Assembly: GCA_963737265.1 (NCBI GenBank)
Contig: CAVTRY010000017.1
Location: forward strand, 1-64,000
DNA from: an uncultured delta proteobacterium
GTDB lineage: Bacteria > Myxococcota_A > Polyangia > Fen-1088
Length of the DNA stretch: 64,000 nucleotides
Direction of reading: 5' to 3'
Shown: positions 3,481 to 41,048 of the stretch, piece by piece
Layout of the letters: every line of letters starts with the position of its first letter
Position numbering within the stretch: the first letter of the stretch is position 1
Made by a program: the position numbers and the translations under genes
The notes under the pieces: model-generated
What the model saw: the letters and a program-made list of their open reading frames with translations, nothing else
Told to the model about the DNA's origin: nothing
Database searches by the model: none

Positions 3481-3570
3481 TGAGACTCCAGAGGACAATG
3501 AGGTGCTCGATGGTGGCGGGCTTCCGCGTGCAGTTTCAGCAACACAGAAGCCCGCCTTGACCGCGGACAA

Positions 3571-6456: not shown

Positions 6457-6800
6457 GGCAAGCTAGACTAAAGGGCCACATGCACGTACTACCACTAGCA
6501 GTAGTTCTTAATTTACATTGGGTTGCTGAACGGTATACCACGCACATCAATTATTTGGGAAAACCCTGAGTACTCCAAAAAAAAGGCATAAGAAAAGGTG
6601 CCAAGGCGCGAAACGCCACACCGTGGATCCCTGCGGTTCGTTCACTTTTCAGCTCTGGAGAGACATTACGGCGGCATCTTTACACTGAAAAGATGTCGCA
6701 GGCGCCGTCGGGCAACTGATTGGCGACGCGTGCCCGGACAGCTGAAGTACACTGGCAAGACTTGCTCTGGTCGGAATCACGCAGTGCCGAGGACTTCTCG

Positions 6801-18407: not shown

Positions 18408-19184
18408 CTAGAAGGGACGATCCACGCTCCGAGCTCGGCTGAAATTCCTCCAGCCGCAAGCGGCATAGGTCGCGCGCACCTGGGTTGCCAGTTCTTGCGT
18501 CGTCAGCGCAGCGGCGTCGGCGGCGGGAATTTCGCCTAGGCGATGAACTGTGATGGGCTGGGCGGCGGCGATGTCGAAGGTCAAGCGGCCGGGAGCAAAG
18601 ACGCGGTCGGTGCCGGCGAGGCAGAGCACGACGATGGGGGCGGCGAGCTCGCGGGCGAGATAGAAGGCACCCTTCTTGAACGGGGCGAGTCGGCCGTCGC
18701 GGCTGCGGGTGCCTTCGGGGAAGACGAGCAGATTGCCGCCCGACCGGAGGTGGTGCGCGACTCTGTCGATCCACGCGCGGCCTTCGCTAAAGAGGTCAGG
18801 GCCGAGGAAGCCGGCGCCGCGGAGGAGCCAGCCGAAGACGGGAACGCGAAAGAAATCTGGGCGCACGATGGTGATGGTTCCGGGCAGCAGGGACAGCAGC
18901 AAGAGCGGATCGAGAAAGGATACGTGGTTGCACACCACCACGCTGCCACGCGTGTGGCGCAGGCGCGGGCGCTCGGGCACATCCAGATGCGCGCGAGGCA
19001 GGGCCATTAGGGTTACGGCGATGAAGCCGCGTGCGTAGCTGCGCAGGGCCCAGGAAATGCCCCGCCGGCCGCGTACAATGCCGGCGACGACGAACACCAG
19101 CCAGTAGCCGGCGACAAAGGCGCCAAGAAAGTAGCCCCATAGCGCGGCGGTCACGGCGATGGAGGCAAGACGGCCAGCCTTCAT
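18408..19184 (-). CDS. PlsC-like lysophospholipid acyltransferase
   Basis: CNHVSFLD (HX4D), VFPEGTRS, FKKGAF. Confidence 0.92.
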   Translation of the reverse strand: MKAGRLASIAVTAALWGYFLGAFVAGYWLVFVVAGIVRGRRGISWALRSYARGFIAVTLMALPRAHLDVPERPRLRHTRGSVVVCNHVSFLDPLLLLSLLPGTITIVRPDFFRVPVFGWLLRGAGFLGPDLFSEGRAWIDRVAHHLRSGGNLLVFPEGTRSRDGRLAPFKKGAFYLARELAAPIVVLCLAGTDRVFAPGRLTFDIAAAQPITVHRLGEIPAADAAALTTQELATQVRATYAACGWRNFSRARSVDRPF

Positions 19185-19978
19185 GCCGGTGGCTCCGAGC
19201 TAAGTGCCTCTGAAACCGAAACGCAGCGCAGGCCGCGGCGGGCCGCTTCCTGAAGAATCTCCGGCAGCGCCGCGACGCCGGCGGGTTCGTGCTCGCCGCG
19301 CTCGGCGGCGTCGTGCAATAGGATGATGGCGCCGGAGCGCAGGCCGCTGGCGATTCGGCGGATGGTCGTGGCGACAGTCGTGCGCGCAAGACCGTCACGG
19401 CCGCGAGCGCTCCAGCCCACGAGGGTCAATCCCAGCCGGTGCGCGGCCAGGGCGGTGCGCGGGCTTATGTGTCCGAGGGGCGGACGAAACAGTCGTGGTC
19501 GCAGCCCGGTGGCCGATTCAACCGCGCCCAAGGCGCGTTCGAGGTCGGCAACGATGCGGTCGGGGTGGCGAAGCGACAGCAGCCTGTCGTGATGATCGCC
19601 GTGGATGCCAAGCTCGTGGCCGGCGGCGGCGATTTCGCGCAACACTTCGGGCGTCGCGCGCGCCTTGGCGCCGAGCACGAAGAAGGTCGCGTGGGCGTTG
19701 CCGCGGGCGAGGCTGGCCAGAACCTTGCGGGTCGATATCGCGCTGGGGCCATCGTCGAATGTGAGGGCGACTTCCGCTCGGTTGCCCGAGACGCGGGAGA
19801 CAACCCGGGCGAACATGGCGAGCTGAGGGTTCATTACGCCGGCCAAGATCACGGCGAGATAGCCAACCAGAACGAGCGCCGCCGGCCAGACTGACGGCGG
19901 CGCGACAAACGCCCACGTCGATACCACGGCCGCGACGACCGCGGCTGAGCCAATCAAGACGTAGCGTCCCGTGGACAT
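19181..19978 (-). CDS. Polysaccharide deacetylase (NodB/CE4) with N-terminal TM segments
   Basis: ALTFDDGP, HATFFVLG, GHELGIHGDHH, FRPPLG, GAIILLHD. Confidence 0.92.
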   Translation of the reverse strand: MSTGRYVLIGSAAVVAAVVSTWAFVAPPSVWPAALVLVGYLAVILAGVMNPQLAMFARVVSRVSGNRAEVALTFDDGPSAISTRKVLASLARGNAHATFFVLGAKARATPEVLREIAAAGHELGIHGDHHDRLLSLRHPDRIVADLERALGAVESATGLRPRLFRPPLGHISPRTALAAHRLGLTLVGWSARGRDGLARTTVATTIRRIASGLRSGAIILLHDAAERGEHEPAGVAALPEILQEAARRGLRCVSVSEALSSEPPA

Positions 19979-20122: not shown

Positions 20123-20533
20123 CTATGGTGAGGCCGTTGGCACAGCTGCGGGCTGGGGTAACGGCGTCGCGCCTGGCGACCCGTCCGGAGCGCCGTAATT
20201 CGCTGGCGCGGTCGGCTGCGCTGGTCCGGGCCAGGCCTGTCCAGCAGGAGCGCCCCACGTCGGTGCGTACACCGGAGTCGGCGCACCGAGGGGGCGCCAG
20301 TTTCCGGAGTCGACGGAATATCGAACGGTGAGCCCGCAGCCTGTCGCAGTCGCCATGTGGCACTTGCCGTCGACACATCGGGTTACCACTTGATCCTCTG
20401 GGCAACGGAGAAGCCTCTCGGCGAGCGGCGCTACTTCGGTGCGAAGGTAAACCTCATTGCTCGCACACGCGCACAACCCGACTCCCCAAAAGGCATTGAC
20501 GGCAACAAACACCAGCCGCATGCGAGTCTTCAT
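20123..20533 (-). CDS. Hypothetical lipoprotein with Pro-rich tail
   Basis: Signal peptide with LCAC lipobox; ATGA overlap with the upstream gene. Confidence 0.55.
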   Translation of the reverse strand: MKTRMRLVFVAVNAFWGVGLCACASNEVYLRTEVAPLAERLLRCPEDQVVTRCVDGKCHMATATGCGLTVRYSVDSGNWRPLGAPTPVYAPTWGAPAGQAWPGPAQPTAPANYGAPDGSPGATPLPQPAAVPTASP

Positions 20534-22029
20534 GACGAAGGACTCTTAGGTGAGTTGGATTGGGCTGTCAATACGTTTGACCGTGTGCGAACCGAATTCA
20601 TCAGATCGCGGACCTCTCGGCGCCCGGCGACCGCGGCGGCCACGCGCAGAACGCCCATGCTTACCCCGAGCAATCCAGGCGCGAGCGCGCTCTGTCCCAC
20701 CAAGAACAGCCCATCGAGGGGCGGCCGGGACAGCACGAGGTATTCAAGTCCGTCGCGAATCGAGTGGCGTACGCCATAGGTGCCGCCACGCGGGGCGCCC
20801 GTCCAATCGCGCATGGTCAGCGGCGTCCACACGTCGATGATGCGCGGCTCGCGAAGCGGGCCGAGGGCGGTCGCGATTTCGCCCAGGGCTTGCCGAGCCC
20901 GGCGCAGCTTTTCGGCGCGGTATGCGGGACCACGTCGTCCGGTCTGTGTGTGTTGCCACTCGGCCCAGCTAGCGTAGTCGCTTTCGGCGAGAACGATCAG
21001 GCGCGTGGTGCCTGGCGGTCCAGCCGGACGCAGCTGCGCGTAGACGCCCGCCAAACTGCGGCCCGGTTCGCCGCGAACGCGGTAGACGTTGTGGTCGAGC
21101 GCCGGGTGGTGCTTTTCATCAACCAGGGCCACGACGCCGAGGGTGCCTCGGGTTTCCTCAAGCGCGCCGATTCTTGTCCAGTAGCCATCGTTCAGGGCGG
21201 CGGCCGGAATCATGTCGACGAGGGTCTTGGGGTGGATGCTCGCAACCACGTTGTCCGCGGCGAGGACTGTTCCTGAGCGCAGCCGAATCCCGCTCGCACG
21301 GCGGCCACTCACGTCGACAGCGACGGCGGGATCGCTCGCGACAATCGTCACGCCAGCGGCGATCGCCCGTTCCAACAGGGCGTCGGCCATCTCGGCGCCG
21401 GTGCAGCCAAGCTCCCACGCCGACTGCAGCAGCGACGCACTCGCCATCATGAGGAATGGAGCGGGGCAGACGGAAAGATTCACGCCAAGCAGGAAGCCCT
21501 GGAGCGCGACGATATCCACCAGGCGCCGTGGCAGGTTCTTTTCCGCAAGGACCTCGGCCGCCGTCTTGGTCATGGGGAGGGTTGACGGCGGGGCGCCGGA
21601 GCCATCGGTGCGCAAGCTGGCCATGGCGCCATGGCAGAGATTCATGACGTAGGCGACTGCCGCCGGCGTGTCTCCGAAACGCGCGGTCAGCGATGCCTCC
21701 AGTTTCTCCACCGTGTCGGGAAGGTCGAAGACGTCGTCGTCGAGCACGAAGCGATCGATGACACCGCTTCCGCCGAGGCGGCGCAACTTCAGCGCCGGCC
21801 GAATTTCGAGCACATCGAAGAAGTCGCCCAGCAACTGGCCGGGCAACGCCGAGCCGATGTAGTGCACGCCAACCGGACAGTCGACGCCTTCGCGGCTGTA
21901 GCTGCGCAGACATCCGCCTGGGCGCGCCGCTGCTTCGACCAGCGTGACGCGAAGGCCGAGGCGGGCGAGTACGATGGCTGTGGAAAGACCGCCAAAGCCG
22001 GCACCGACGACCGCGACGTGGGGGCTCAC
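20530..22029 (-). CDS. Phytoene-desaturase/retinol-saturase-like FAD oxidoreductase
   Basis: GTG start overlapping the upstream stop; VVGAGFGGL, PGGCLRSYSR, GVHYIG, TPLTMRDWTGAPRGGTYG, LFLVGQ. Confidence 0.88.
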   Translation of the reverse strand: MSPHVAVVGAGFGGLSTAIVLARLGLRVTLVEAAARPGGCLRSYSREGVDCPVGVHYIGSALPGQLLGDFFDVLEIRPALKLRRLGGSGVIDRFVLDDDVFDLPDTVEKLEASLTARFGDTPAAVAYVMNLCHGAMASLRTDGSGAPPSTLPMTKTAAEVLAEKNLPRRLVDIVALQGFLLGVNLSVCPAPFLMMASASLLQSAWELGCTGAEMADALLERAIAAGVTIVASDPAVAVDVSGRRASGIRLRSGTVLAADNVVASIHPKTLVDMIPAAALNDGYWTRIGALEETRGTLGVVALVDEKHHPALDHNVYRVRGEPGRSLAGVYAQLRPAGPPGTTRLIVLAESDYASWAEWQHTQTGRRGPAYRAEKLRRARQALGEIATALGPLREPRIIDVWTPLTMRDWTGAPRGGTYGVRHSIRDGLEYLVLSRPPLDGLFLVGQSALAPGLLGVSMGVLRVAAAVAGRREVRDLMNSVRTRSNVLTAQSNSPKSPSS

Positions 22030-24194
22030 GCGAAGACCTCGATGGCCGTGGCGTGACGGCCGAGCTGCAGGAGCAACAGGCGCTTGCGCGGCAGCGCGAG
22101 AGGTGTCGGTCCGAAGGGAAGGACTCCCGCGCAGACCGCGCGCGCCGCGATGGCGGTAGCCGTGGCGCTCGCGCTGGCGTGCTGGCCAAGGTCGTCGCGG
22201 TAGGGCACGAGCGGACAGTCGGGCAACGTGCCCGCCAGGCGCGCGAGCGTTCGGTTCGCGGCCGCGCCGAGGGCCGCAGGAACGCTCACCGCGATGGCGT
22301 CGTAGCGATCCCGAGCGACGATGCCGGCAAGAAGAGAAACTGCGCCCGCATCTTCGTCGTTGCCGCCGCCTTCGCCCAGCCATCGTACGCGCGCGCCGGG
22401 GACGTCGTCATCGGGCACGAGAACGAAGGCGGCGCCGCCTTCGGAGGCCAGCGGGCCGGTCGCCGCGGCAGCGTCGAGCAGGGGGGACAGCCGTGCATCG
22501 TACGCTTCGGCGGCCATCACCAAGGCGCGCTGCTCGCCAGTGGCCATGCCGAGCGAGGCGCACAGCAGGGCTTGCTCGAACGATCGATCGCCAGCCGAAC
22601 AGGTGAGGTTGGGCGCCTGCGCGGCGAGCAGAAGCGCAACCTGGCCCGCCGGGGCGTTGTGGACCGAACCGATGAAGTCCATGGGGCTCGAAAACTGGTC
22701 GCCCGTCTCGAACAGCTTGCGCAAGAAGTCCTGCGTTTCGGCGAGCGGTCCCCACGCCGTCCCGACGGCGAGCAGGTCGGGAGGCGTGCTTCTGCCGCTG
22801 GCGGTGTGCGCGGTTTGGGCGAGGGCGAGCATGAGGCGCGGCAGGCGCTTGAGGCGGCGGATGAAGGCGGCGGGCGCGGCTCCGGCGAAGCATGCGTCGG
22901 GCACGAAACCGGCTACCTTTTTCGCGGCGACCAGCGCGGCCCAAGTGTCGTCGAGTGTTCCGCGTGCGCTGAGACAGGCGGCGGCGGCGATGCGCAGGGC
23001 GGGCAGGGCACGCGTCCGATCTGGCCGGGCATCTGCGACGGAGTTTGCTTCGCCGGCCTGGCATAGAACGACGCAGGCGTTGTTGCCGCCGAAGCCGAAG
23101 GAATTCGACAGCACCGCGCGAACGCGGGAGCGCGTTGGCTGTCGGACCGGCGCAACGCCCAGCTTCGGATCCACGGTTTCAAGCCCCGTGTTCGCGGGCA
23201 ACAAACCGTCGGTCAGGGTGAGAACGGCAATCACTCCCTCGATGGCGCCCGCGGCGGCCAGGGTGTGGCCGGTGAGCCCCTTGGTGGATGACAGGGCCGG
23301 CACCTTGTCGCCAAAGACTTGCTTGATGGCCCGGGCCTCGGCGGCGTCGTTGTCGACGGTGCCGGTCCCGTGCAGGTTGATGTAGTCGATGGCCGACGGT
23401 TCAAGCCCGGCGTCGGCGAGGGCTCGCTGCATGGCCAGCGCGGCGCCTCTGCCCTCGGGGTGGGGGCTGGTGGCGTGATAGGCGTCGCAACTGAGGCCGG
23501 TGCCGGCAACCTGGGCCAGCATCGAGCGTCCGCCCGGCTCCGATTCGAGAAGCAGAAAACCCGCGCCTTCCCCAACTGTCATACCGTCTCGGTTGGCATC
23601 GAGTGGTTTCGCTCCTCGGGCCGCGACCAACTGAAGCTGGCGGAAGCCGTGGAAGGTGAGGCGGCACAGCGAGTCCGCGCCGCCGGCCAACACTCGCCGA
23701 GCGAGGCCAGCGCGGAGTAGGGCGTTGGCCACCGAGAGCGCGACGGCCGCACTCGAACACGCGGTCGAAAGGGTGAGCACCGGCCCGCGAACGCCGAGCG
23801 TTTCGGCCAGATGGTCCGCGACCGTGTCCAGGCCATGAAACCGGTAAGCGGCCGGGGATAGAGCACCGGCCTGCAGTGCGAATTCGGTGGCCAGAATGCC
23901 GCCGGTGGTGGTGCCGAGCACGATGGCGTCGGGGGCGGGGCCGTTTCCCACCGCCTGGCGCGCGGCCAGCATGGCCAGGCGGTGGGTTCGCGGCAGCACG
24001 TCGGCCTCGGCGAGATCGGGCGTGGAAACCTGGGCAACCGGCAAGGCTGCACTCTCGCCAGCGACTGGGAAAACCGTCGACGCCTGGAACCGGCGCGCGG
24101 GCGCAAGCAGAAGCCGCCGCAGCTCGGCGACGTCGTTGGCTCCGGCACAGATGACGCCGAGCCCGGAAACGAAGACCTTGGGCCGCGTGTTCAT
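22026..24194 (-). CDS. Fused ketosynthase + chain-length-factor-like domain
   Basis: KS triad STACSS / NLHGTGT / KGLTGHT, SNSFGFGG; C-terminal half RRLKRLPRL...SPMDFIGSVHNAPAG resembles aryl-polyene CLF. Confidence 0.85.
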   Translation of the reverse strand: MNTRPKVFVSGLGVICAGANDVAELRRLLLAPARRFQASTVFPVAGESAALPVAQVSTPDLAEADVLPRTHRLAMLAARQAVGNGPAPDAIVLGTTTGGILATEFALQAGALSPAAYRFHGLDTVADHLAETLGVRGPVLTLSTACSSAAVALSVANALLRAGLARRVLAGGADSLCRLTFHGFRQLQLVAARGAKPLDANRDGMTVGEGAGFLLLESEPGGRSMLAQVAGTGLSCDAYHATSPHPEGRGAALAMQRALADAGLEPSAIDYINLHGTGTVDNDAAEARAIKQVFGDKVPALSSTKGLTGHTLAAAGAIEGVIAVLTLTDGLLPANTGLETVDPKLGVAPVRQPTRSRVRAVLSNSFGFGGNNACVVLCQAGEANSVADARPDRTRALPALRIAAAACLSARGTLDDTWAALVAAKKVAGFVPDACFAGAAPAAFIRRLKRLPRLMLALAQTAHTASGRSTPPDLLAVGTAWGPLAETQDFLRKLFETGDQFSSPMDFIGSVHNAPAGQVALLLAAQAPNLTCSAGDRSFEQALLCASLGMATGEQRALVMAAEAYDARLSPLLDAAAATGPLASEGGAAFVLVPDDDVPGARVRWLGEGGGNDEDAGAVSLLAGIVARDRYDAIAVSVPAALGAAANRTLARLAGTLPDCPLVPYRDDLGQHASASATATAIAARAVCAGVLPFGPTPLALPRKRLLLLQLGRHATAIEVFA

Positions 24195-24466
24195 GGAGGC
24201 GAGGCTAGCCTGCGCCGGCGAATGAAGTCGGCCAGCGTGGCCAGGGAAGCGAAGGCCTCGATGCCAGCGGCACGGTTGTCGATTTTCACGCCGTAGTCCT
24301 TTTCGATCATGACCACGAGCTCGAGGGTATCGATGGAATCGATGCCCAGTCCCGCGCCGATGAGCGGCACCGCGGGATCGACGGCCTCCGCCGTCATGTC
24401 GAGGCCAAGGGTTTCCACCAGCTTGCGTGCAAGCTCGGCGACCAGAGGATCGGTTTGTTCAGTCAC
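24191..24466 (-). CDS. Acyl carrier protein
   Basis: GTG start with GGAG RBS; GLGIDSIDTLELVVMIEKDYGV. Confidence 0.92.
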   Translation of the reverse strand: MTEQTDPLVAELARKLVETLGLDMTAEAVDPAVPLIGAGLGIDSIDTLELVVMIEKDYGVKIDNRAAGIEAFASLATLADFIRRRRLASPP

Positions 24467-24498: not shown

Positions 24499-25758
24499 TC
24501 AGGACAAACGTCGGAAGACCAGGCAAGTGTTGGTGCCGCCGAAGCCGAAGGCGTTCTTGAGCACGTATTCCTGGTCGCGGTGGGGGCGCGTGGTGGTCAC
24601 GATGTCGAGGCTGATTTCCGGGTCGGGGGTGAGATTGATGGTGGGAAGAAGCACGCCGTTTTGCATGCCCTCGATGGCGAGCATCGATTCGATCACGCTG
24701 GCCGCGCCCATGGCGTGGCCGAACTGCGACTTGTTGGCGCTGACCGGGGGCACCTTCGCGCCGAACACGTCGTGCAGCGCCTCGTCTTCGATCTTGTCGC
24801 CGAGGCGCGTGGACGACGCGTGGGCGTTCACAGCGGCGATGGCGTCGGGGCCGAGGTCGGCTGCCGCAATCGCCTCGGCCATGCACGTCGCGATGGTGGC
24901 GCGATTGGGGGCGACCGGGTGGTGCGCGTCGGAGGTCAACGACCAGCCAGCCAGCTGGCAAGCGGGACGCAGCCCATGCGCCCTGGCGAAGTCGGCCGAG
25001 ACCATGACCACGCAGCCGGCACCCTCGGAGATGACGAAGCCGCGCCGGTCGAGCGAGAACGGGCGGCTGGCCCGCTCGGGGTGTCGCGCGTCCTCCTCGG
25101 TCTTGGGCTTGAAGGCCCCGTTCATGGTGGAAAAACCCGCCACGATGGGCTCGACCAGGGGGAAGTCCACCGCGCCCGCAATCACCACGTCGGCCCTCCC
25201 GGCGCCGATGAGCATGGCGCCCATGGCCATGGATGTACTGCCGGTGGCGCACGCCGTGACGGTGGAGATGCAAGGCCCGGTAGCGCCCGACAGAATGGAG
25301 ATCTTTCCCGCGATCATGTTCACGCATGAATTCGGGTTCATGTAGGGCAGGGGAAGGGCGCCGGTGGCGACCAGCGTTCGGTCGGCATCCACCACGGCGT
25401 CGAGGCCGCCGATGGCGGTGCTGAAGGTGACGGCCACGCGCGGCGACAGGGCAGGGGTGATTTCCACGCCCGATTTGGCGAGCGCCCGATGCACGACCAG
25501 CATGCTGTAGCGAAAGACCGGCGACTTCCAATGCGCCATCTCGCGTGGGCGCAGGCAGAGCGGCAAGGGATCGATGGCGTCGGGGTCGAGGTTGACCTGG
25601 CCGGCGATGCGCACGGGAAAATCCGGTCGCAGGGGAAAGCGGGTGAGAGGGCCGATGCCGCTCTCGCCCCGCACCGCGCGCTGCCACGCCTGGGACCAGT
25701 CGAGCCCCATGGACGAAACGCCATCCCATCCCAGCAGCACCGGTCGCGACTGTGTCAT
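24499..25758 (-). CDS. FabF-like beta-ketoacyl-ACP synthase
   Basis: TACATG, ASRPF, GFVISEGAG, NAHASST, KSQFGH, NAFGFGG. Confidence 0.92.
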   Translation of the reverse strand: MTQSRPVLLGWDGVSSMGLDWSQAWQRAVRGESGIGPLTRFPLRPDFPVRIAGQVNLDPDAIDPLPLCLRPREMAHWKSPVFRYSMLVVHRALAKSGVEITPALSPRVAVTFSTAIGGLDAVVDADRTLVATGALPLPYMNPNSCVNMIAGKISILSGATGPCISTVTACATGSTSMAMGAMLIGAGRADVVIAGAVDFPLVEPIVAGFSTMNGAFKPKTEEDARHPERASRPFSLDRRGFVISEGAGCVVMVSADFARAHGLRPACQLAGWSLTSDAHHPVAPNRATIATCMAEAIAAADLGPDAIAAVNAHASSTRLGDKIEDEALHDVFGAKVPPVSANKSQFGHAMGAASVIESMLAIEGMQNGVLLPTINLTPDPEISLDIVTTTRPHRDQEYVLKNAFGFGGTNTCLVFRRLS

Positions 25759-25771
25759 GGCCGGCTTTCGG

Positions 25772-26767
25772 CTACCACGGGATGAAGCGGTACAGTTTGG
25801 CGAACATCTCGTAGACCTCGATCCAATTCTGAAGGTCTTGGGCGGTGCGAATGTGGGCCCGCTTGTTCACCATGATCCAGCTCATGTGGGCCGCGCCGTC
25901 CTTGCACGTGCTGCAATCGCGTGTGGCCGACGTGCAACAGCGGTGGGTTGTCTTGAGGTCGGCGGCCCAGCGGCGGAAGCGAATCAGCCGACGCGGCTGC
26001 GGATCGCGCGTGTCATGGGTTTCGGAAACCGCCGGGCATTCGCCCCAACCGAAACGGCGACCGAGCATGGTGCCCGAGGTCAGCACCTGGTGGTAGTAGT
26101 GCGACGAGATGACCGTCTCGGGATAGCGATCCATGAGCTCGTCCATTTCGCGGCGGACGTCTTCGAGCTGTTCCGCCTGCCAGGAAAAGCCGTCGGCATC
26201 TTCGTCGTTGGAAAGCAGCTGGAAGTGAACCTTGACGCCGATGTCGCGGATGCGGCGGACCATCGACTCGACGCGTCCGACCTGCTGCGAGGTGATGGTG
26301 TACAGATAGTAAGTGTAGAGATCGCCGGCGTAGTTCTTCGACGAGACGGCGAAGGCGTCTTTTCCGCGCAGGGACTTTTCGGTTTCGGCGTCGCCCCACA
26401 GGGAAATCCCAACCATCATCTGCGGGAAGCGATCGCGCGGCACTTTGATGAGTCCGTTGGTGGCGCAAAAGGTGGGCAGGCGCTGGAAGAAAGCCTCGAC
26501 GCGGTCGAGGTGCAGGCTGGGCTCGCCGCCGATGAGGATGGCCAGGTTGACCCCGCGTTGCATTTCGGCGTCGACGAAGAGTTCCCAGTCGTGGACATCC
26601 TTCGCTTCGCCCGTCAGGTGCTCGTCCGAGGAAAAGAAGAAGCAGCCGTTGCAGCGCAGGTTGCAGGCGTTGGTGACGTCGTAGATCGAGCTGCGGATGT
26701 TGAGGTTGCAGATCTTCTGGTAGCGGTCGTACCAGGCGTCGTCGAGCAGCGAGCGGACGGTGATCAT
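25772..26767 (-). CDS. Radical SAM protein with C-terminal Cys-rich motif
   Basis: CNLRCNGC, GGEP, C-terminal ECP...CCTSATRDCSTC; ATGA overlap with upstream paralog. Confidence 0.9.
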   Translation of the reverse strand: MITVRSLLDDAWYDRYQKICNLNIRSSIYDVTNACNLRCNGCFFFSSDEHLTGEAKDVHDWELFVDAEMQRGVNLAILIGGEPSLHLDRVEAFFQRLPTFCATNGLIKVPRDRFPQMMVGISLWGDAETEKSLRGKDAFAVSSKNYAGDLYTYYLYTITSQQVGRVESMVRRIRDIGVKVHFQLLSNDEDADGFSWQAEQLEDVRREMDELMDRYPETVISSHYYHQVLTSGTMLGRRFGWGECPAVSETHDTRDPQPRRLIRFRRWAADLKTTHRCCTSATRDCSTCKDGAAHMSWIMVNKRAHIRTAQDLQNWIEVYEMFAKLYRFIPW

Positions 26768-27882
26768 CGATCGGCTCCGGCGGCATCCGCGGGCGGCAGC
26801 GTGGCGCACAGGGTGTCGCCCTTGGCGTAGCCCGGAACCCACACCGCGAGGTAGGTATCGACGTAGTCGAGCCACGCCCGGAATTGGTCCGGGTTCGCCA
26901 CGTGGCGGTTCATGCGCGCGGTGACGATGGCGCTGCCCGCGGCATAGTGCCGGCAATCGGCGCAGTCGGTGTCGGGGACGCAGCAAGAGGATTCGCGGAC
27001 CCAGGTCAGGTCGGAGCGGTACTGGCGGAACGAACGGCCGAGACCGAATTGTCCCCGGTTCTGCCGTGGATATGGGCACGAAAAGAGCCCGTGCAGGGAG
27101 CGTGCGTCGGTGTGGACAGCGGCGCTGTAGGGCGAAAAGAGAACGTGGTCTGGGAAGTCGCGCAGCAGGCTCAGCATGGCCTGCCGCGTTTCCGCCAGCG
27201 ATATCGGCGAGTGCGCGAGCGCGCCCGAATAGCCGGTGGTGGCCGAGAAGACGTTGAAGGTCACGCGGCAGTCGCTCTTGGCCAGTTGCTGAACCACCCC
27301 GCGCGATTCGGCGATGTTGTCACGGGTGAAGGTGTAGACGAATACGGCGCGTGCATCGCCGGCGTAGTTCTCGATCTGGCGCGCAAGCATGCGCTTGGCT
27401 CGGCGGGTTCGTTCTGAGGTTGCGTCGTTGCCCCAGGCCGAGATGTGAATTCGATATTCCACCGACGTCGGAATGCGTACAAGCCCATTGCTGGCGATGG
27501 CGCCGAGCGGGATTTCGCCGAAGCAGATCCCAAGCAAGTCGGGGACGAGCGCCGGCTCCGCGCCGGCCAGCACGACGAAGGTAATGCCGCGCTCCTTTTC
27601 GGCCTGCATGAGCGCCCGCCAAGCGTCCGGGTCGACGTTGTCCCGCGCGTGCTGCTTGTCGCCTTCGAAGTAGTAGCAGCCCTCGCAGCGGGCGTTGCAG
27701 CGGCTGGTCATGTCGTAGGTCGACTCGCGCAGAAAGAAATGGCCGCGCACTTTGTGAAAACGAGCTGCGATGTCAGGGCTTCTGAGGATCTCCGAGAGGG
27801 TCCATGCCGTGGCCGCCGCCGCATTCGACGGCGTGGAAGCCTGTGCGCAGGCTGGGGCGCGAGCGACGATGTCCGTGGCCAT
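26764..27882 (-). CDS. Radical SAM protein, apparent paralog of the downstream gene
   Basis: CNARCEGC, GAEP, C-terminal SCP...CCVPDTDCADC. Confidence 0.9.
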   Translation of the reverse strand: MATDIVARAPACAQASTPSNAAAATAWTLSEILRSPDIAARFHKVRGHFFLRESTYDMTSRCNARCEGCYYFEGDKQHARDNVDPDAWRALMQAEKERGITFVVLAGAEPALVPDLLGICFGEIPLGAIASNGLVRIPTSVEYRIHISAWGNDATSERTRRAKRMLARQIENYAGDARAVFVYTFTRDNIAESRGVVQQLAKSDCRVTFNVFSATTGYSGALAHSPISLAETRQAMLSLLRDFPDHVLFSPYSAAVHTDARSLHGLFSCPYPRQNRGQFGLGRSFRQYRSDLTWVRESSCCVPDTDCADCRHYAAGSAIVTARMNRHVANPDQFRAWLDYVDTYLAVWVPGYAKGDTLCATLPPADAAGADR

Positions 27883-27913
27883 GTCGGTCTCTACACCCCC
27901 CCTGCAACGAGCG

Positions 27914-28183
27914 CTAGCCGGCTGCACCCTGAAGTTGCTGGACCTCAGCCGCGATGGCGCGAACCGTGGTCAGGGTTGGGTAGCTGTCCTCGTCGAACTT
28001 GACCTTGTACTCACCTTGCAGCACCAGGACCACCGTCGTCAGGTCCATGCTGTCGATGCCAAGCTCTTTGACCAGGTCGGTGGTCACATCGAAGGTATCC
28101 GGCGTGACGTTTTCGAGCTTGAGCTCCTGAATCAGAATCTCGGCGATACGCCGTTCCATCGAGCCGTTCTGCATCTGAGACAT
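27914..28183 (-). CDS. Acyl carrier protein
   Basis: ELGIDSMDLTTVVLVLQGEYKV. Confidence 0.9.
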   Translation of the reverse strand: MSQMQNGSMERRIAEILIQELKLENVTPDTFDVTTDLVKELGIDSMDLTTVVLVLQGEYKVKFDEDSYPTLTTVRAIAAEVQQLQGAAG

Positions 28184-28370
28184 CGGATTTCAACCACCCT
28201 CTGAAGGTGCCCCGCGCTTTAGCATGCTTTTTCATGGACAGTCAAGGTTGTGACCGGCAGTCCCGCCAGTCCATGCCAGGGCCGACCTTATCGCCGACGG
28301 CGTCTTGCGCTTCGCTGGTGGCACGTGCAAAATGGCGCGCGCTCAAGCAATCCGCTCGCTCTGCTGTCGC

Positions 28371-29933
28371 ATGTCGTACAAATCCTCTGAACCCTGTGTG
28401 GTGGGCATCGGCCCGGTCGGTATCGATGCGCTCATTCGGGTGGCTGTCCACGGCGCAGACGTGCGGCTATCCGAGGATGGAGACTGGTTGCGGCGCATGA
28501 CCGCTTGCCAGCAACGGCTCGCCGACGCGGTCGCGGACGGCACGCCCATCTATGCCGTGACGACCGGATTCGGCAGCAACTGCGGCGCGCGAATTTCGGC
28601 GGAGAACATCGCAGCCCTTGGCGCAGGACTCTTGCGTTTTCACGGCTGCGGAACCGGACCCGCGCTGCCCGTGCCGGCCGTGCGCGGTGCGATGCTATGT
28701 CGTGTGCTGTGTCTGCTGCGCGGTTATTCCGGTGTACGACCGGCGCTGGCGCGGCGGCTCATCGAGATCCTCAATCGTGGCATCACCCCGGTGGTGCCGG
28801 CGCAGGGATCCGTGGGCGCGTCGGGCGACCTCACGCCCATGTCCTATGTGGCCGCCGCGCTGGTCGGCGAACGCGAGGTCTTCTATCAGAACGACAGGAT
28901 GCCGGCGGCGCGTGCGCTCGATCTTGCCGGGCTTGCTCCGTTCGAATTCGCGGTGAAAGAGCCCATCGCCATGCTCAACGGCACGCCCATCATGACCGGT
29001 GTCGCCATCGTCGTGGTCGACCAGTGCCGACGCATCCTGGCTGCGGCCACGCGTGCGACCGCCCTGGCCGTACACGCCATGGCCGGGCACGAGCATCACT
29101 TGCACCCGGCGCTCTTCGAGGCCAAGCCGTTTCCAGGGCAACAGGCGGTCGCAACTCATTTGCGGGCGCTCCTGCGTTCCGAGGGAGCCGCGCCCGAAGC
29201 AGAGGTTCCGGAGACGCTGCAAGATCCCTACTCGTTGCGGTGCGCGCCGCACGTCCTCGGCGTACTGGCGGACGCCCTCGACTGGGTCGAGCGCTGGGTT
29301 GAAATCGAGGCCGGCTCGGCAACCGACAACCCGCTTTTCGATCCAGAGTCCGGCCGCCCGCTCATGGGCGGGAACTTCTACGGCGGGCACATCGCCTTCG
29401 CCATGGACGCCGTGAAGGCCGCCGTGGCCTCGGTCGCCGATCTGTGCGATCGCCAGGCGGCACTGCTGGTAGATACCCGATTCAATCGTGGCTTGCCGGC
29501 GCACCTGGCGGTGCCGTCGTCGCAGGGACTGGCGCCGCGCCATGGCTTCAAGGGGATGCAGATTACCTTGTCGGCCCTGACCGCCGAAGCGCTGCAGGCG
29601 TCCATGCCGGCGGCTTCGTTCTCGCGTTCGACGGAGTCGCACAATCAGGACAAGGTGAGCATGGGGACGCTCGCCGCGCGCGAGGCGTTGCGAGTTTGCG
29701 ATTTGGTCAGCCACGCGGTGGCGGTACACCTGCTTGCCGGCGCGCAAGCATGCGAGCTGCGCGGAGGGCTCGGTGCGCGCCCGGCGGTCGCGGCCTTGGT
29801 GCGCAGGGTGCGGGCGTCCAGTCCCGCGCTGCAAGACGACCGTTGCCTTGACGTCGACATCGAGGCCGTGCATCACGCCGTGGTCGCAGGTGATGTCGGC
29901 CTGGGGTTAGAAACAGGCGTGAGGGGCCGCTAG
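28371..29933 (+). CDS. MIO-dependent aromatic amino acid ammonia-lyase (HAL/PAL/TAL family)
   Basis: IYAVTTGFG, GSVGASGDL, QDPYSLRC, TDNP, GGNFYG, HNQDKVSMG; start uncertain. Confidence 0.93.
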   Translation: MSYKSSEPCVVGIGPVGIDALIRVAVHGADVRLSEDGDWLRRMTACQQRLADAVADGTPIYAVTTGFGSNCGARISAENIAALGAGLLRFHGCGTGPALPVPAVRGAMLCRVLCLLRGYSGVRPALARRLIEILNRGITPVVPAQGSVGASGDLTPMSYVAAALVGEREVFYQNDRMPAARALDLAGLAPFEFAVKEPIAMLNGTPIMTGVAIVVVDQCRRILAAATRATALAVHAMAGHEHHLHPALFEAKPFPGQQAVATHLRALLRSEGAAPEAEVPETLQDPYSLRCAPHVLGVLADALDWVERWVEIEAGSATDNPLFDPESGRPLMGGNFYGGHIAFAMDAVKAAVASVADLCDRQAALLVDTRFNRGLPAHLAVPSSQGLAPRHGFKGMQITLSALTAEALQASMPAASFSRSTESHNQDKVSMGTLAAREALRVCDLVSHAVAVHLLAGAQACELRGGLGARPAVAALVRRVRASSPALQDDRCLDVDIEAVHHAVVAGDVGLGLETGVRGR

Positions 29934-30361
29934 TGGACTCGCGCCGCCGCGCCACCGTGCGCCTGTGCATTCCGTTCTGCGACGTGGATGCGATGCAGGT
30001 GGTCTGGCACGGCAACTACTTCAAGTATTTCGACGCTGCGAGGGATCGCCTTTTCCGCGACGCTGGCCTCGATCTGTACCGCGGCTTCGAGGACGGCGGG
30101 CTGGTCTTTCCCATCACGCGCACCCAGACCAAGCACATTCGTCCGCTGCGCCTGCGCGATGAGGTCGACTGCACGGCCGTCCTGGTGGAGGCCGAGTGTC
30201 GGCTGGTGGTCGAGTTCGAAGTCCGCCTGGCGGCGACGGGCACGCTGTGCGCGAAGGGGCGGACCGAACAGGCCGCGGTTCGCCTGGCGGACGGAACGCT
30301 CGAGCTGCGCTTGCCGGAAACCATGCGGCGCGCGCTTGGCTGTGCCCGCGATGGCGGCTGA
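29933..30361 (+). CDS. Acyl-CoA/ACP thioesterase (YbgC/4HBT hot-dog fold)
   Basis: FCDVDAMQVVWHGNYFKYFD. Confidence 0.9.
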   Translation: MDSRRRATVRLCIPFCDVDAMQVVWHGNYFKYFDAARDRLFRDAGLDLYRGFEDGGLVFPITRTQTKHIRPLRLRDEVDCTAVLVEAECRLVVEFEVRLAATGTLCAKGRTEQAAVRLADGTLELRLPETMRRALGCARDGG

Positions 30362-35992: not shown

Positions 35993-37145
35993 TCAGAAGA
36001 AGCTCGAAAGAGCGAGGTAGTAAAGCCCACCCACAGAGCCGAATTCGCTGCGCAGATCGGGCGTGGCATCGACAAGGAGGATTCTGCCCAAGCCTTGGAA
36101 CGCCCCGAGCGAAAGCGCGGTCTCTTGTGCGATCTGGTAGGCTAAAGCACTGGCGAGCACCACGCTTGGATCCTGCAAATTTCCCAGCGTGGTGAACGAG
36201 AGCTGGAACAGCTCCGAAATCTTCCAGGCCGCGGCGGCACCGGCGTACCAGCGGCCGAGCAGGTAGCTCTCGCCGCGCGCGATCGCCGGCGACGTGGTGA
36301 GATGCGCGACGTAGTCCGAGGCGTGCCCTACGCCGGTCCCGTTGTAGCTCGCTTCCAAGGTCAGTGTGAGCTGGCCGTGCAGCCAGTCCGCTCCGATGGA
36401 GCCGCGCGGACGCAAGAGGTCGCGGCCGTCGAGGTCGTAAGGTCCGCGACCTCGGCGCGCAGCTTGAAGCTGCCAACGACGGCACCGGCTCCCCCGAAGG
36501 CAATAATCTCGCGCCACTGTTTGGTCAGGGCAAAGTAGACATCCACGGCGCGCAGGTAGGCGATGGCGCGCAGGCCGGCAGACAGATCCCCCAGCGTGCC
36601 CCGGTCGGCCACCACGCCCTCGAATTCGAGCGAGGACGAATGGGAGTAGAGAAGGCGAAGCGCATCGACGCCGCGCTTTTGCGAGGTATCGAGCTCGAAC
36701 GGGCTGAAGGTGGTCCACAGATCCGCGATGGGGAACAGCGAGGCGAAGCCCCAGGTGATGGCCTGGCGGCCCAGGCTAAGGTCGAAATTCCCTAGCTCGG
36801 CACGCATGGCCATGCGATCGATGTCGTGCTCGAGCAGCAGGCGATCCTCGTCGTAGGCCACCGAGCGGAGGTTGACCGTCCGCCGTGGCACGGCGCTGGC
36901 ACCGATGCCCAGCTTCTGGCCGCCGAGCACGAGCGCTTCGCTGCTGACACGCAAGAAGAGGCGTTGGTGGAGCTCAGCCGTGACGTGCTCGCCGATGTCT
37001 GCCTTCCATTCCAAACGCAGCAGGGTCTCGGAAAGCCCGAGATGATCGGGCGGGGCCGGCGACGGTGCACCAGGCCCGAGGTCGAACCTCAACTGTTGCA
37101 ACCCGCCGAGCGTGAACGCATACCCGCCGAGAGACAGCTCCGAAC
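35993..37145 (-). pseudogene. Hypothetical outer-membrane beta-barrel-like protein; 5'-truncated, frameshift at ~36410
   Basis: DIDRM...LGRQAITWG...KRGVDALR continues in a second frame to GGLYYLALSSFF. Confidence 0.55.
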
Positions 37146-38953
37146 AGGCCGGGGTTCGCCTGGCGGACGGAACGCTCGAGCTGCGCTTGCCGGAAACCAT
37201 GCGACGCGCGCTTGGCTGTGCCCGCGATGGCGGCTGATGACGGCTAAGGAGTTAACCGCCGGCGACTTGCGCGCAGCCTTGGTCGCCGGGTATGCGTGCA
37301 CGGCGGCCTGGGCGGAGCTGCTCGATCGCATCAACGTGTTTCTCGTCGCCGATGGGGACACGGGTCGAAACATGGTGATCAGCCTGGCGCCGCTTCGCGA
37401 TCGGGAGGCGAGTGGCGCCGTCGTCGCCGAACGCCTGTTGCTGTCGGCGCGGGGGAACTCGGGCAACATCGCCTGCGCTTTCGTGCGCGCCCTGCTCGAT
37501 GGTGGCGCCGGCGAGAGTCTGGCCGCGCGCTGTGTGCGCGGGGCTGACCTTGCTCGCCGGGCGGTCGCCGTTCCCCAACTCGGGACCATGCTTACCGTTC
37601 TCGGCGCGCTTGCGCAGGCGGCGGAAACGGGCTTGTCCCGCGATGGGTTGGAGGAGCACCTGTTGCGCCTGGCCGAGGTCGTGAGCGAGACCGTCCATGC
37701 GCAAGCTGCCTTACGGTCGTCCAACGTGGTGGACAGCGGTGCGCTCGGAATACTGGTTTTTCTCGACGGGATGTTGCGTCTGTACTTTGGCGTCGGCCAG
37801 GCTGGGGCCGTACTGGCCGAACGGTTCCGTTCCTTGATCTCGTTCGAGCGTGGTCGGACGCGAGACGAATCTGAAACCGGATTCTGCGTCGATGCAGTCG
37901 TGCGCGGCCCGCGTCCGCCGGACGCTGCGCTGTCCCACATTGGCGGCGAGGTCGTGGTCCTGCACGAGGGCGATCTGTGGAAAATCCATCTGCACGCGCC
38001 CGACGTCGACGTGGCTAGGGCGGCGCTTGGCGAGCTGGGAGAGATCGTGCGCTGGTCGTGGGACGACCTGCACGAGCAGATGTCGATCCGGCCGGCCGCG
38101 GGCAACGGCGACGATGTCCACATCATGACGGACGGTGCGGCATCGCTGTCCCGCCGCGACGCCGAGGCGCTCGGGATCACCCTGCTCGACAGCCACATCA
38201 ACCTGGGCGATCTGTCGCTGCCCGAGACACGCCTGGCGCCCGATGATTTGTACCACGCCATGCGACGTGGGGTGCGCGTGTCGACTTCGCAGGCGTCGAC
38301 CTTCGAACGTCACAAGCACTACGAACGGGTGACGTCCCAGTGGCCGAGCGCGCTCTATTTGTGCGTGGGATCGGTCTACACTGGAAACCACGCCGTGGCG
38401 CTCGATTGGCGATCGTCGCACCCCGCGGGCGCGCGCATGACCCTGCTCGACTCGGGGGCGGCGTCCGGCAAGCTGGCGGTGGTGGCGCGCGCCACGGCGC
38501 TGGCGGCCCGAGGTGGCAGGCCCGTCGCAGCGCTGGCCGAGCTCGCCCGGGCGGCGCTGGCGCGCGCCGAAGAGTACATCTTTCTCGATCGCCTCGAATA
38601 CCTGGCGCGGGGAGGTCGCATGTCCAAGGCCGGCGCGCTTTTCGGGGACGCCTTGCACTTGGCACCGGTTGTTTCGCCCATGCCCGACGGCGCTCGCAAG
38701 ATGGCGTTGCTGCGCAAACCGGAAGACAAGGTCGCTTTCGCGTGCGAGCGCGCTCGGCAAGCGCTTGAAGCAACGGCCGGTCGGGGCTACCTACTCGTCG
38801 AGCACTCCGACAACCGCCCGTGGGTTGCCGAAAACGTGTTGCCACGTCTGCGGGCGGCGCTGCCAGACGCGGAGATTGCGGTCGGGGCGCTGTCGCTCAC
38901 CACCGGCGCCCACACCGGCCCCGGCACATGGGCGCTTGCCATCCTGCCCGGGC
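37140..38953. repeat. 1.8 kb direct repeat, copy 2
   Basis: Near-identical to 30264-32078. Confidence 0.95.
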
Positions 38954-38970
38954 CCCTGCAAGGCGCGTGA
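37237..38970 (+). CDS. DAK2-DegV fusion protein, copy 2, full-length
   Basis: Intact frame; DAK2 motif reads NVFLVADGDTG (P>L versus copy 1); DegV motifs STSQ, DS.AASG, YLARGGR, GAHTGPG. Confidence 0.85.
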   Translation: MTAKELTAGDLRAALVAGYACTAAWAELLDRINVFLVADGDTGRNMVISLAPLRDREASGAVVAERLLLSARGNSGNIACAFVRALLDGGAGESLAARCVRGADLARRAVAVPQLGTMLTVLGALAQAAETGLSRDGLEEHLLRLAEVVSETVHAQAALRSSNVVDSGALGILVFLDGMLRLYFGVGQAGAVLAERFRSLISFERGRTRDESETGFCVDAVVRGPRPPDAALSHIGGEVVVLHEGDLWKIHLHAPDVDVARAALGELGEIVRWSWDDLHEQMSIRPAAGNGDDVHIMTDGAASLSRRDAEALGITLLDSHINLGDLSLPETRLAPDDLYHAMRRGVRVSTSQASTFERHKHYERVTSQWPSALYLCVGSVYTGNHAVALDWRSSHPAGARMTLLDSGAASGKLAVVARATALAARGGRPVAALAELARAALARAEEYIFLDRLEYLARGGRMSKAGALFGDALHLAPVVSPMPDGARKMALLRKPEDKVAFACERARQALEATAGRGYLLVEHSDNRPWVAENVLPRLRAALPDAEIAVGALSLTTGAHTGPGTWALAILPGPLQGA

Positions 38971-40242: not shown

Positions 40243-41048
40243 TGCCCACCCCGGCGCCTTCGTGGGACGTTCTGCGTGCTCGCTTCAACGACTGCGGGGC
40301 GCCGTTTGCGTTCGTGATCCCGGTCTACAATCACGCGCACAACGTTCGCTCCGTCGTTCTGGCGGCCGTCGCAAGCGGCGTGCCGGTGGTCGTCGTCGAC
40401 GATGGCTCGACCGACGGCACCGCGCAGGCGCTTGCCGAACCTACCGGCGCGCTGGTTGTGCGCCATGACAGCAATCACGGGAAAGGCGCCGCCATACTCT
40501 CCGGGTTGACCGCTGCCGCTTCGCCTCCCATAGGTGCGCGTTTCGCAGTGACTGTAGATGCCGACGGACAGCACCGTCCCGACGATGCCCGCGACTTGCT
40601 CGCGGCGATTGAAGCGGGCGCCGCACCCTGTCTCGTGCTCGGCTCACGCGTGGGTATGCGCGGGCGCGCGGTACCGTGGAGCAGCCGTTTCGGGCGCGGT
40701 TTTTCGGGCTTCTGGGTTTGGGCTTCGGGCGGACCGTCGGTGTCGGATTCGCAGACCGGCTTTCGCATCTACCCGTTGCCCGAAACGCTGGCACTGGCGA
40801 CGCGGGCGCGCCGATTCGAGTTTGAAGTCGAAGTGCTGGTGCTCGCCCATCGGGCTCGCATCCCGATCTACGAGGTACCGGTGGGCGTGGCCTACGATCC
40901 ACCCGGCGGCCGCGTGTCGCACTTTCGGCCGTGGCGCGATTTTGCCCGCAACGCCGCCACTTTCACGCGCCTGATAGCGACCAGATTTCTGCCCCGTTCG
41001 CTTCTTCGCTCGCCCGTGATGGGCAAGGATGACCGCCATGGCGCGTGA
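40242..41048 (+). CDS. Family 2 glycosyltransferase
   Basis: VIPVYNH, VDDGSTDG, NHGKG, VDADGQH, DSQTGFRIYP, RVSHFRP. Confidence 0.92.
   Translation: MPTPAPSWDVLRARFNDCGAPFAFVIPVYNHAHNVRSVVLAAVASGVPVVVVDDGSTDGTAQALAEPTGALVVRHDSNHGKGAAILSGLTAAASPPIGARFAVTVDADGQHRPDDARDLLAAIEAGAAPCLVLGSRVGMRGRAVPWSSRFGRGFSGFWVWASGGPSVSDSQTGFRIYPLPETLALATRARRFEFEVEVLVLAHRARIPIYEVPVGVAYDPPGGRVSHFRPWRDFARNAATFTRLIATRFLPRSLLRSPVMGKDDRHGA

Follow-up and report, generated by a model that had tools for sequence, protein, structure and literature searches.

The ACP1-RS1-RS2-FabF cassette

The DNA analysed here, called the window, is the first 64,000 nucleotides of contig CAVTRY010000017.1 from an uncultured delta proteobacterium (assembly GCA_963737265.1). 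Between positions 24499 and 28183, its minus strand carries four genes placed head to tail, encoding an acyl carrier protein (ACP1), two radical S-adenosylmethionine (SAM) proteins (RS1 and RS2), and a FabF-type ketosynthase (Table 1). The cassette is real, strongly conserved and uncharacterised, and it is a variant within both the aryl-polyene (Ape) or “ladderane-like” clusters and the auxiliary-cluster radical SAM enzymes. A sequence-only reading had proposed these four genes in this order and on this strand, followed on the same strand by a second ACP, a fused ketosynthase and chain-length factor (KS-CLF), an FAD oxidoreductase, a deacetylase and PlsC, and all of them were found as placed. 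The RS1 stop codon is joined to the RS2 start by an ATGA overlap, and the two proteins are 27% identical over about 318 residues (E 7e-38), in keeping with the translationally coupled paralogs of that reading. ATGA overlaps are also present at the ACP2/KS-CLF and deacetylase/PlsC junctions, and a GTG at 27927 is an alternative start for RS1.

In one-genome-per-species data, 591 of the 599 pattern matches listed encode a relative, a lower bound on the number of related genome stretches, and the 80 best of these stretches form the sample for the counts out of 80. ACP1, RS1, RS2 and FabF follow one another in this order on one strand in 68 of the 80 loci, which means that the arrangement exceeds chance. 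RS1 stands directly before RS2 in 78 loci. A dedicated ACP lies directly upstream of the pair on the same strand in 73, and the ketosynthase directly downstream in 72. Several of the misses are contig ends. In the two loci without an adjacent RS1, the genome holds RS1 on another contig (once at a contig break, once beside ACP1), and both RS genes are present in all 80 genomes.

Identities to the orthologs reach 53-95% for ACP1, 57-79% for RS1, 70-90% for RS2 and 55-87% for FabF, the RS2 range extending across Myxococcota, Desulfobacterota and Spirochaetota; even a divergent ortholog with RS2 at 53% identity keeps the cassette order. Among the matches listed, the closest RS2 relatives (87-90% identity) come from metagenome-assembled genomes (MAGs) of Myxococcales. 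In a 5.8-billion-protein set, 1970 RS2 relatives occur among the candidates scored, the best 120 of which are 72-87% identical and belong to Myxococcales, Desulfobacterota and Spirochaetota records. Clustering at 50% reduces the orthologs to essentially one full-length representative, and the whole family to 429 representatives at E <=0.001. The cassette is patchy in the window's own phylum, being found in 7 of 401 sampled genomes, the source genome included. Culturable carriers are Desulfosarcina widdelii (L015), Desulfogranum japonicum (L056) and Desulfofustis glycolicus (L057), and the cassette as a whole recurs in hundreds of mostly anaerobic bacteria.

Variant orders also occur. In three Myxococcales-labelled loci (L012, L036 and L039), RS1-RS2 is followed by genes for a GT2 glycosyltransferase, an MMPL-methyltransferase fusion and an LpxL-like protein rather than by FabF, and in L089 the same three genes diverge from the pair.

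One enzyme or two

The RS1 and RS2 of any one locus share 25-30% identity, as against 57-90% for their orthologs across phyla. Because the two are far less alike than cross-phylum orthologs, RS1 and RS2 are, judging from these identities, the products of an ancient duplication that is older than the spread of the cassette. Their presence together in 80 of 80 genomes suits an obligate heterodimeric, two-subunit radical SAM enzyme, which the sequence-only reading had considered, rather than two enzymes acting in turn. So do their adjacency in 78 loci, the ATGA coupling seen here and in nine loci with a gap of -4 (Myxococcales clade), and a single 706-aa RS1-RS2 open frame at L019:8879-10999, which has no internal stop and in which a linker of about 25 residues connects the two parts. 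However, this fusion is found in only one of the 80 loci, in a MAG where a sequencing error is possible, and a search for longer RS2 relatives returned no true fusion (the one hit, P0272, looks like a frameshifted RS2-FabF run-on). In most phyla the RS1-RS2 gap is 2-150 bases, one genome has the two genes on different contigs, and both proteins keep complete catalytic motifs, consistent with independent enzymes. NirJ1/NirJ2, AhbC/AhbD and CofG/CofH are paralogous radical SAM pairs that work as independent enzymes. Prediction of the RS1-RS2 complex gave an ipSAE of 0.00 in both runs, a result which, obtained without controls, is uninformative either way. The strict co-occurrence speaks for the heterodimer and the rarity of fusion against it, and we regard it as a tentative proposal, more doubtful than probable. 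The delta-proteobacterial MAG with the fused frame also has a second, unfused copy of the cassette (L016).

Motifs, family and fold of RS1 and RS2

The N-terminal motifs of RS1 and RS2 are STYDMTSRCNARCEGC and SIYDVTNACNLRCNGC, and their C-terminal cysteines follow the patterns CP...CC-x5-C-xx-C in RS1 and CP...CC-x6-C-xx-C in RS2, just as the sequence-only reading had quoted them. In the alignments, the CxxxCxxC and the C-terminal cysteines are invariant in 12 of 12 RS1 and 11 of 11 RS2-type sequences. In RS1 the SAM cluster motif is C62/C66/C69, and C120, C269, C300, C301, C307 and C310 are also invariant; in RS2 the invariant cysteines besides CxxxCxxC are C245, C278, C279, C286 and C289 (alignment A1 numbering). 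The GGE-type motif by which radical SAM enzymes bind SAM is present as GGEP in RS2; RS1 has GAEP in its place, invariant in 12 of 12 sequences. Because the cysteines of the SAM cluster and of the C-terminus are invariant, RS1 and RS2 both look catalytic. The claim that neither protein carries an N-terminal B12-binding domain also held, since a Pfam scan gave no match to PF02310 in either, and the CxxxCxxC, which begins at residue 62 in RS1 and 35 in RS2, is too close to the N-terminus to leave room for one.

The sole Pfam matches of RS1 and RS2 are PF04055, at 25.8 and 26.9 bits just below the 29.5 cut-off, and a weak, also sub-threshold Fer4_12. Neither protein matches above any curated NCBIfam cut-off. 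The best scores are 37.5 bits against 306 for RS2 (TIGR03961) and 25.7 bits against 325 for RS1 (archaeal MoaA), and all sub-threshold matches are of SPASM, twitch or MoaA type. The AlphaFold model of RS2 (mean pLDDT 69, pTM 0.75, with low confidence in the loops that would bind clusters) has a beta/alpha core. Foldseek places it closest to SkfB (E 2e-5, TM 0.45), and anSME, CteB, BlsE and TigE are also among the top matches (E 2e-5 to 8e-4, TM 0.38-0.45), the whole range of solved relatives being E 2e-5 to 1e-3. When the PDB was searched with profiles of the two alignments, SkfB again ranked highest (E 3e-8 and 1e-8), over only the first ~150 core residues. Kinship with HpnH, with Tes/GDGT-MAS and with tyrosine lyases was considered and rejected, the matches being weak and confined to N-terminal motifs (NF045702, E 1.3e-3; 7tol, E 0.1-0.2) or absent. 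In the ESM Atlas, only the protein's own unnamed radical SAM clusters were returned, and a literature search, covering articles without their supplements, returned no paper describing the twin RS1-RS2 pair.

Like the solved twitch/SPASM enzymes SkfB (6efn), anSME (4k36-4k39), CteB (5why/5wgg), BlsE (7vob), PqqE (6c8v) and SuiB (5v1q), RS1 and RS2 have a partial TIM-barrel core with CxxxCxxC and a cysteine-rich C-terminal extension. They differ in the extension itself, C-x33-CC-x5/6-C-xx-C being neither SPASM nor a named twitch motif, and the known members of that group act on peptides, sugars and cofactors, not on acyl-ACPs. The nearest solved structures (SkfB, anSME, CteB, BlsE and PqqE) are auxiliary-cluster enzymes that cross-link or oxidise. 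On these remote similarities, RS1 and RS2 can tentatively be placed among the auxiliary-cluster (twitch/SPASM-like) radical SAM enzymes, where they form a separate branch that has no name.

Since the best solved matches include the peptide maturases SkfB, CteB and SuiB, as well as anSME, the substrate of the pair might be a peptide or a protein, such as some protein of the pathway or even ACP1. Yet ACP1 has no cysteine, no RiPP recognition element was detected in the Pfam scan, the neighbourhood analysis found no short precursor-like gene conserved beside the pair, and the conserved neighbours are all lipid or polyketide enzymes, so that a peptide or protein substrate appears highly improbable.

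A probable add-on to an aryl-polyene pathway

The annotated Ape cluster of E. coli CFT073 (18 genes) was compared directly with the source genome. Counterparts of ApeC, D, E, F, H, I, J, K, L, M, O, P, Q and R were found, split between the window and a second locus on contig C11 (L171). The full core set as named in the Figure 1 legend of bioRxiv 10.1101/2020.12.19.423268, that is the ketosynthases ApeO/ApeR, the ACPs ApeE/ApeF, the chain-length factor ApeC, the dehydratases ApeI/ApeP, the ketoreductase ApeQ and the transporter ApeM, has its counterparts over these two contigs, the one for ApeM being weak (22% identity, E 1e-5). Most Ape proteins of E. coli CFT073 and Xenorhabdus doucetiae are matched, ApeO and ApeC being fused here and ApeJ split into a GT2 and an LpxL-like protein.

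Table 1. Genes of the cassette and its surroundings in the window, and of the second locus in the source genome
Feature	Position	Strand	Description
ACP1	27914..28183	-	89 aa; PF00550, E 2.4e-9; DSM serine motif
RS1	26764..27882	-	372-aa radical SAM protein; ATG start
RS2	25772..26767	-	331-aa radical SAM protein; RS1 paralog
FabF-type ketosynthase	24499..25758	-	419 aa; PF00109 and PF02801
ACP2, ApeE-like	24191..24463	-	PF00550; 40% to E. coli ApeE, E 2.6e-15
KS-CLF fusion, ApeO-like KS and ApeC-like CLF	22026..24194	-	722 aa; PF00109, PF02801, PF13723; 39% to ApeO, 33% to ApeC
FAD-dependent oxidoreductase, phytoene-desaturase/CrtD type	20530..22041	-	PF13450 and PF01593; start codon approximate
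Polysaccharide deacetylase family protein	19181..19978	-	PF01522, E 7e-30
PlsC/ApeD-like lysophospholipid acyltransferase	18408..19184	-	PF01553; 28% to ApeD, E 1e-20
Aromatic amino acid ammonia-lyase (HAL/TAL type)	28305..29933	+	PF00221, E 4e-152; divergent from ACP1
4HBT thioesterase, ApeK-like	29933..30361	+	PF13279; 37% to ApeK
DAK2-DegV fusion (FakA joined to FakB-like)	36826..38970	+	PF02734, PF21645, PF02645; start of the open reading frame probably over-extended
Ketosynthase KS3, ApeR ortholog	39007..40242	+	43% to ApeR, E 5e-113
GT2 glycosyltransferase, N-terminal half of ApeJ	40242..41048	+	PF00535; 37% to ApeJ residues 10-251
Large membrane protein, ApeM-like exporter with methyltransferase	41029..44130	+	Methyltransferase domain at residues 848-1006; ApeM match weak
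Lipid A-type (LpxL-like) acyltransferase, C-terminal half of ApeJ	43803..44993	+	PF03279; 28% to ApeJ residues 332-550
ApeF-like ACP	C11:366001-379000		38%
ApeI-ApeH fusion	C11:366001-379000		
ApeQ-like FabG	C11:366001-379000		49% to ApeQ
ApeP-like dehydratase	C11:366001-379000		
ApeL counterpart	C11:366001-379000		
Second ketosynthase	C11:366001-379000		40% to window FabF
Second 4HBT thioesterase and PKS-type dehydratase	C11:366001-379000		
LolA; 216-aa protein; 425-aa protein	C11:366001-379000		B12-binding domain in the 425-aa protein

The 18 annotated genes of the E. coli CFT073 cluster include no radical SAM gene, and the word “radical” is absent from the text of PMC8253772 on the genetics of that cluster; the sequence-only claim that canonical aryl-polyene clusters lack such a pair agrees with this reference. 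The comparison likewise gave no Ape ortholog for ACP1, RS1, RS2 or FabF. ACP1 is 32% identical to ApeE (E 3e-7) and has no match to ApeF, and FabF, at 28% to ApeR and 31% to ApeO, is orthologous to none of the Ape ketosynthases. Since an ApeF-like ACP is present on C11, a reading in which ACP1 takes the place of ApeF was rejected. The Cys-His-His triad is intact in all the ketosynthases, including FabF and its C11 partner. Because the Ape cluster has no radical SAM gene and nearly all of its parts are matched here, ACP1-RS1-RS2-FabF is best described, as far as these comparisons go, as an add-on to a complete Ape-type pathway, with ACP1 as a third, dedicated carrier protein. The predicted add-on, every member of which is without an Ape ortholog, consists of the four cassette genes together with those for a partner ketosynthase, a PKS (polyketide synthase)-type dehydratase and a thioesterase. 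These last three are found on C11 here and next to the cassette in other genomes.

Compared with the E. coli cluster, the extra genes are the third ACP, the two radical SAM enzymes, two ketosynthases, the PKS-type dehydratase, a second 4HBT thioesterase, the CrtD-like flavoprotein, the deacetylase, the C11 protein with a B12-binding domain, the ammonia-lyase, and the Fak-like kinase. The CrtD-like oxidoreductase is not a curated CrtD, as it stays below the curated family cut-offs (TIGR02733, 87 bits against 550), and the ammonia-lyase falls under every curated NCBIfam cut-off. Orthologs of the large membrane protein in L056 and L015 carry MMPL domains too. In Xenorhabdus, the aryl polyene lipid (APEL) has a glycerol-phosphate-GalNAc backbone that bears several chains: the aryl polyene, for which ApeE is the carrier; a conjugated C26:5 fatty acyl, with ApeF as its presumed carrier and ApeD as the presumed attaching enzyme; and an ordinary saturated chain (bioRxiv 10.1101/2020.12.19.423268). 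As with the APELs, the product here is probably also an envelope glycerolipid.

Genes around the cassette

Neighbours were counted by unbiased clustering in 42 loci of moderate GC content. Ketosynthases occur in 40 of these loci, PKS-type dehydratases in 33, ACPs in 31, ApeI/FabA-like dehydratases and 4HBT thioesterases in 27 each, polysaccharide deacetylases in 24, a B12-binding radical SAM enzyme in 22, FabG in 18, LolA in 14, PlsY in 13, and an MMPL-methyltransferase fusion in 10. In the best loci, homologs of the pair are mostly linked to ACP and ketosynthase genes, and the conserved neighbours are all lipid or polyketide enzymes. These data support the assignment of RS1-RS2 to a carrier-protein-based lipid pathway. 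Taken with the 13 of 42 neighbourhoods that contain PlsY, the fused DAK2-DegV protein is a hint that the chain may enter the lipid by way of an acyl phosphate. An ortholog of DAK2-DegV, at 72-78%, lies between the thioesterase and KS3 genes in the close relatives L004 and L005. The same fusion is also found at 42% in L018 and L025 (Desulfobacterota-type), beside an LpxL-like gene.

With ACP1 heading the cassette and a ketosynthase directly after the RS genes, the pair might instead act before extension by FabF, on an aromatic head group or starter unit on ACP1 and not on a long acyl or polyene chain. The tyrosine/histidine ammonia-lyase gene that diverges from ACP1 in the source lineage fits this order of events, as do the aryl-acid-type AMP ligases near the cassette in other loci. 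However, an ammonia-lyase homolog is found in only 5 of the 80 loci, four of them the closest Myxococcales relatives; the standard route for an aryl starter (ApeH ligase with an ApeE/ApeF ACP) is already present in the genome, and the NCBIfam matches reveal no similarity of RS1 or RS2 to radical SAM tyrosine lyases. Action on the starter unit is accordingly an improbable, though not negligible, alternative.

The absence of an enoyl reductase from the neighbourhood and the presence of polyene-type dehydratases lead one to expect enoyl- or polyenoyl-ACP substrates, to whose double bonds RS1 and RS2 might add the 5'-deoxyadenosyl radical instead of abstracting hydrogen. Radical addition to alkenes is established for HpnH and MqnE. 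But the NCBIfam matches include no relation to either enzyme, and the conserved auxiliary-cluster cysteines argue for a redox role, whereas adenosylation needs no auxiliary cluster. We consider such an addition very unlikely.

A direct repeat of about 1.8 kb with 99-100% identity occupies positions 30264-32068 and 37140-38945 of the window, and takes in most of the DAK2-DegV (Fak-like) gene as well as the thioesterase gene at its 3' end. In the first copy, a one-base length difference breaks the frame near 31575. The roughly 5 kb between the copies contain a DUF362 gene, a fragment with a TRCF domain, and an FtsH paralog, to which the other FtsH copies of the genome are just 64% and 45% identical. 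In the close relative L004, the genes for the ammonia-lyase, thioesterase, Fak-like protein, ketosynthase, GT2 and methyltransferase are contiguous, without the ~5-kb insert. Repeat and insert reflect either a true duplication with an insertion or an error of the assembly. Elsewhere in the window, positions 59196-61540 carry an IS21-type pair, in which an IstB-like ATPase accompanies a transposase that has rve and Mu-transposase C-terminal domains, and the GC content of positions 1-8000 is 0.56-0.59, compared with 0.62-0.71 over the remaining positions.

The wider family

When metagenomes were scanned with distant relatives (30-38% to RS2), 37 loci of at least 7 kb were obtained. Seven hold the twin cassette, all with ACP1 and six then with FabF, and the other 30 hold a single RS gene of a distant branch (~32% identical to RS2). 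In this branch, a PaaA/PaaC-like ferritin-type gene is nearby in 18 of the 30 loci, a ketosynthase is present in 10, an ACP lies within 6 kb in nine, and five loci have none of these. Since no ACP lies near 21 of the 30, the family is not uniformly ACP-linked. In both annotated loci that bear an ACP, it touches the RS gene, either upstream (L093, in the order KS-ACP-RS) or directly downstream (L102). The relative P0136 (724 aa, 30% to RS2) is a TubC_N-thioesterase-RS fusion, which combines an assembly-line docking domain and a thioesterase domain of type II with the RS part. From such arrangements, a link to carrier-bound or thioester substrates appears to recur beyond the orthologs, without being universal. 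Two contexts are seen among the distant loci (L090-L146): directly after a PaaA/PaaC-like gene (for example L126:3804-7011), often with thiolase, AMP-ligase, aminotransferase or P450 genes, and within a KS-ACP-RS trio in 7 of the 30 (for example L093:4348-7035). The cluster members of ten distant representatives, from Blastocatellia, Pyrinomonadaceae, Alphaproteobacteria and others, include no anammox name and no functional name.

Relation to the ladderane clusters

Excerpts of PMC2649909 and PMC4790861 describe FASII (type II fatty acid synthesis)-like clusters with “SAM radical” genes, common to Kuenenia (kuste3335-3352) and Desulfotalea, to which they assign no function. Compared with these clusters of Kuenenia stuttgartiensis and Desulfotalea psychrophila (DP185x), as the excerpts present them, the locus is alike in its several ACPs and FabF homologs, its phytoene-desaturase-like flavoprotein, its radical SAM genes, a deacetylase-like protein, a glycosyltransferase and an aryl-CoA-type ligase. 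Since its gene content resembles that of kuste3335-3352 (PMC4790861, PMC2649909), and since the antiSMASH “ladderane” class is built on that anammox work according to the relevant passage of PMC4489286, the cassette might make ladderane-type (cyclobutane) lipids or their immediate precursors, in line with the proposal for the anammox clusters. Anammox bacteria are, however, the only reported source of ladderanes, although “ladderane” clusters have been called across many further phyla, as the pertinent section of PMC9902471 puts it. The cassette carriers among the best 80 loci are Myxococcota, Desulfobacterota and Spirochaetota, with no anammox locus among these 80 of at least 591 related stretches, and no ladderanes were found in Desulfotalea, which has a similar cluster, according to the abstract of PMC2649909. 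Heterologous expression gave no kuste3342 or kuste3343 proteins in the accounts excerpted from PMC4790861 and PMC2649909. A SPASM-plus-B12 radical SAM pair stands beside the twin cassette in only three of the 80 loci, all of Desulfocapsaceae type, and its SPASM gene has no homolog in the source genome. The analogy to the ladderane clusters, which the sequence-only reading had drawn, stands for cluster type only and is weaker than that reading had it, and a ladderane product is extremely unlikely. At least here, what is labelled “ladderane” outside anammox bacteria would be an aryl-polyene-lipid system with a radical add-on.

Proposed mechanism and implications

Taken together, these comparisons favour, if only somewhat, a model in which ACP1-RS1-RS2-FabF is a conserved add-on plugged into an aryl-polyene-lipid pathway, with RS1 and RS2 as putative oxygen-independent tailoring enzymes. 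Because the genome already has ApeE- and ApeF-like ACPs, and ACP1 comes in addition with ketosynthases, a dehydratase and a thioesterase of its own, the likeliest role of the add-on is to make one more chain, of a specialised kind. FabF and the partner ketosynthase would build an acyl or polyenoyl chain on ACP1, and it is probably this ACP1-bound chain that serves as substrate for the pair. RS1 and RS2, each with a predicted SAM cluster and at least one predicted auxiliary Fe-S cluster, would then abstract hydrogen from the tethered chain. The auxiliary cluster may act as an electron sink, in the manner of the nearest structural relatives, leading to an oxygen-independent oxidative change, although this class of reaction can be put forward with far less assurance than the substrate. 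The likeliest change would be a C=C bond, or a carbon-carbon ring or cross-link formed onto the unsaturated system; the paralogs would work together in one complex or one after the other. Once complete, the chain would be freed by the 4HBT thioesterase, reactivated here through phosphorylation by the Fak-like kinase, and esterified to glycerol-3-phosphate by PlsC together with PlsY in other genomes, giving an envelope glycerolipid like the aryl polyene lipids. The FakA/FakB-like fusion in the window, PlsC at the end of the operon, and PlsY in the 13 loci counted above fit this sequence of release, phosphorylation and esterification. In a bolder version, which is rather unlikely, the pair would close a ring or form a cross-link within or between ACP-tethered polyenoyl chains by oxygen-free radical chemistry, a reaction that would be new for radical SAM enzymes.

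Several observations weigh against the model. The auxiliary region of RS2 is weak in the predicted structure (pLDDT <50 at residues 241-288), Pfam SPASM (PF13186) is unmatched in RS1 and RS2 despite five invariant C-terminal cysteines in each, and the nearest solved relatives, of weak similarity (TM 0.38-0.45), act on peptides or small molecules. In the distant branch, 21 of 30 loci have no ACP within 6 kb and 18 have a ferritin-type gene. FabF is missing directly after the pair in three of the 80 loci (L012, L036 and L039), and in one genome ACP1-RS1 and RS2-FabF sit on different contigs. Finally, PlsY occurs in only 13 of the 42 neighbourhoods, and the Fak-like gene in 4 of the 80 loci at more than half coverage.

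The radical SAM cyclopropanases Jaw5 and C10P are HemN-like, with SAM as the methylene donor. They belong to another radical SAM subfamily, each works alone on an iterative PKS, and no sequence relationship with RS1 or RS2 was seen. They nevertheless offer a precedent, in the relevant part of PMC13459092, for the tailoring of a carrier-bound ketoacyl chain during elongation. The cassette is a widespread case, found in at least 591 genome stretches, with clear partners in a dedicated ACP and a ketosynthase, and its culturable carriers allow a direct test. If the bolder version is true, RS1-RS2 would be the first auxiliary-cluster (twitch-like) radical SAM enzyme with an acyl carrier protein thioester as its substrate, and the envelopes of hundreds of anaerobic species of Desulfobacterota, Spirochaetota and Myxococcota would contain cyclised or cross-linked lipids of a class not yet described. 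The product may be a lipid of anoxic sediments, peat and soils that has so far gone unrecognised, and perhaps a biomarker of them.

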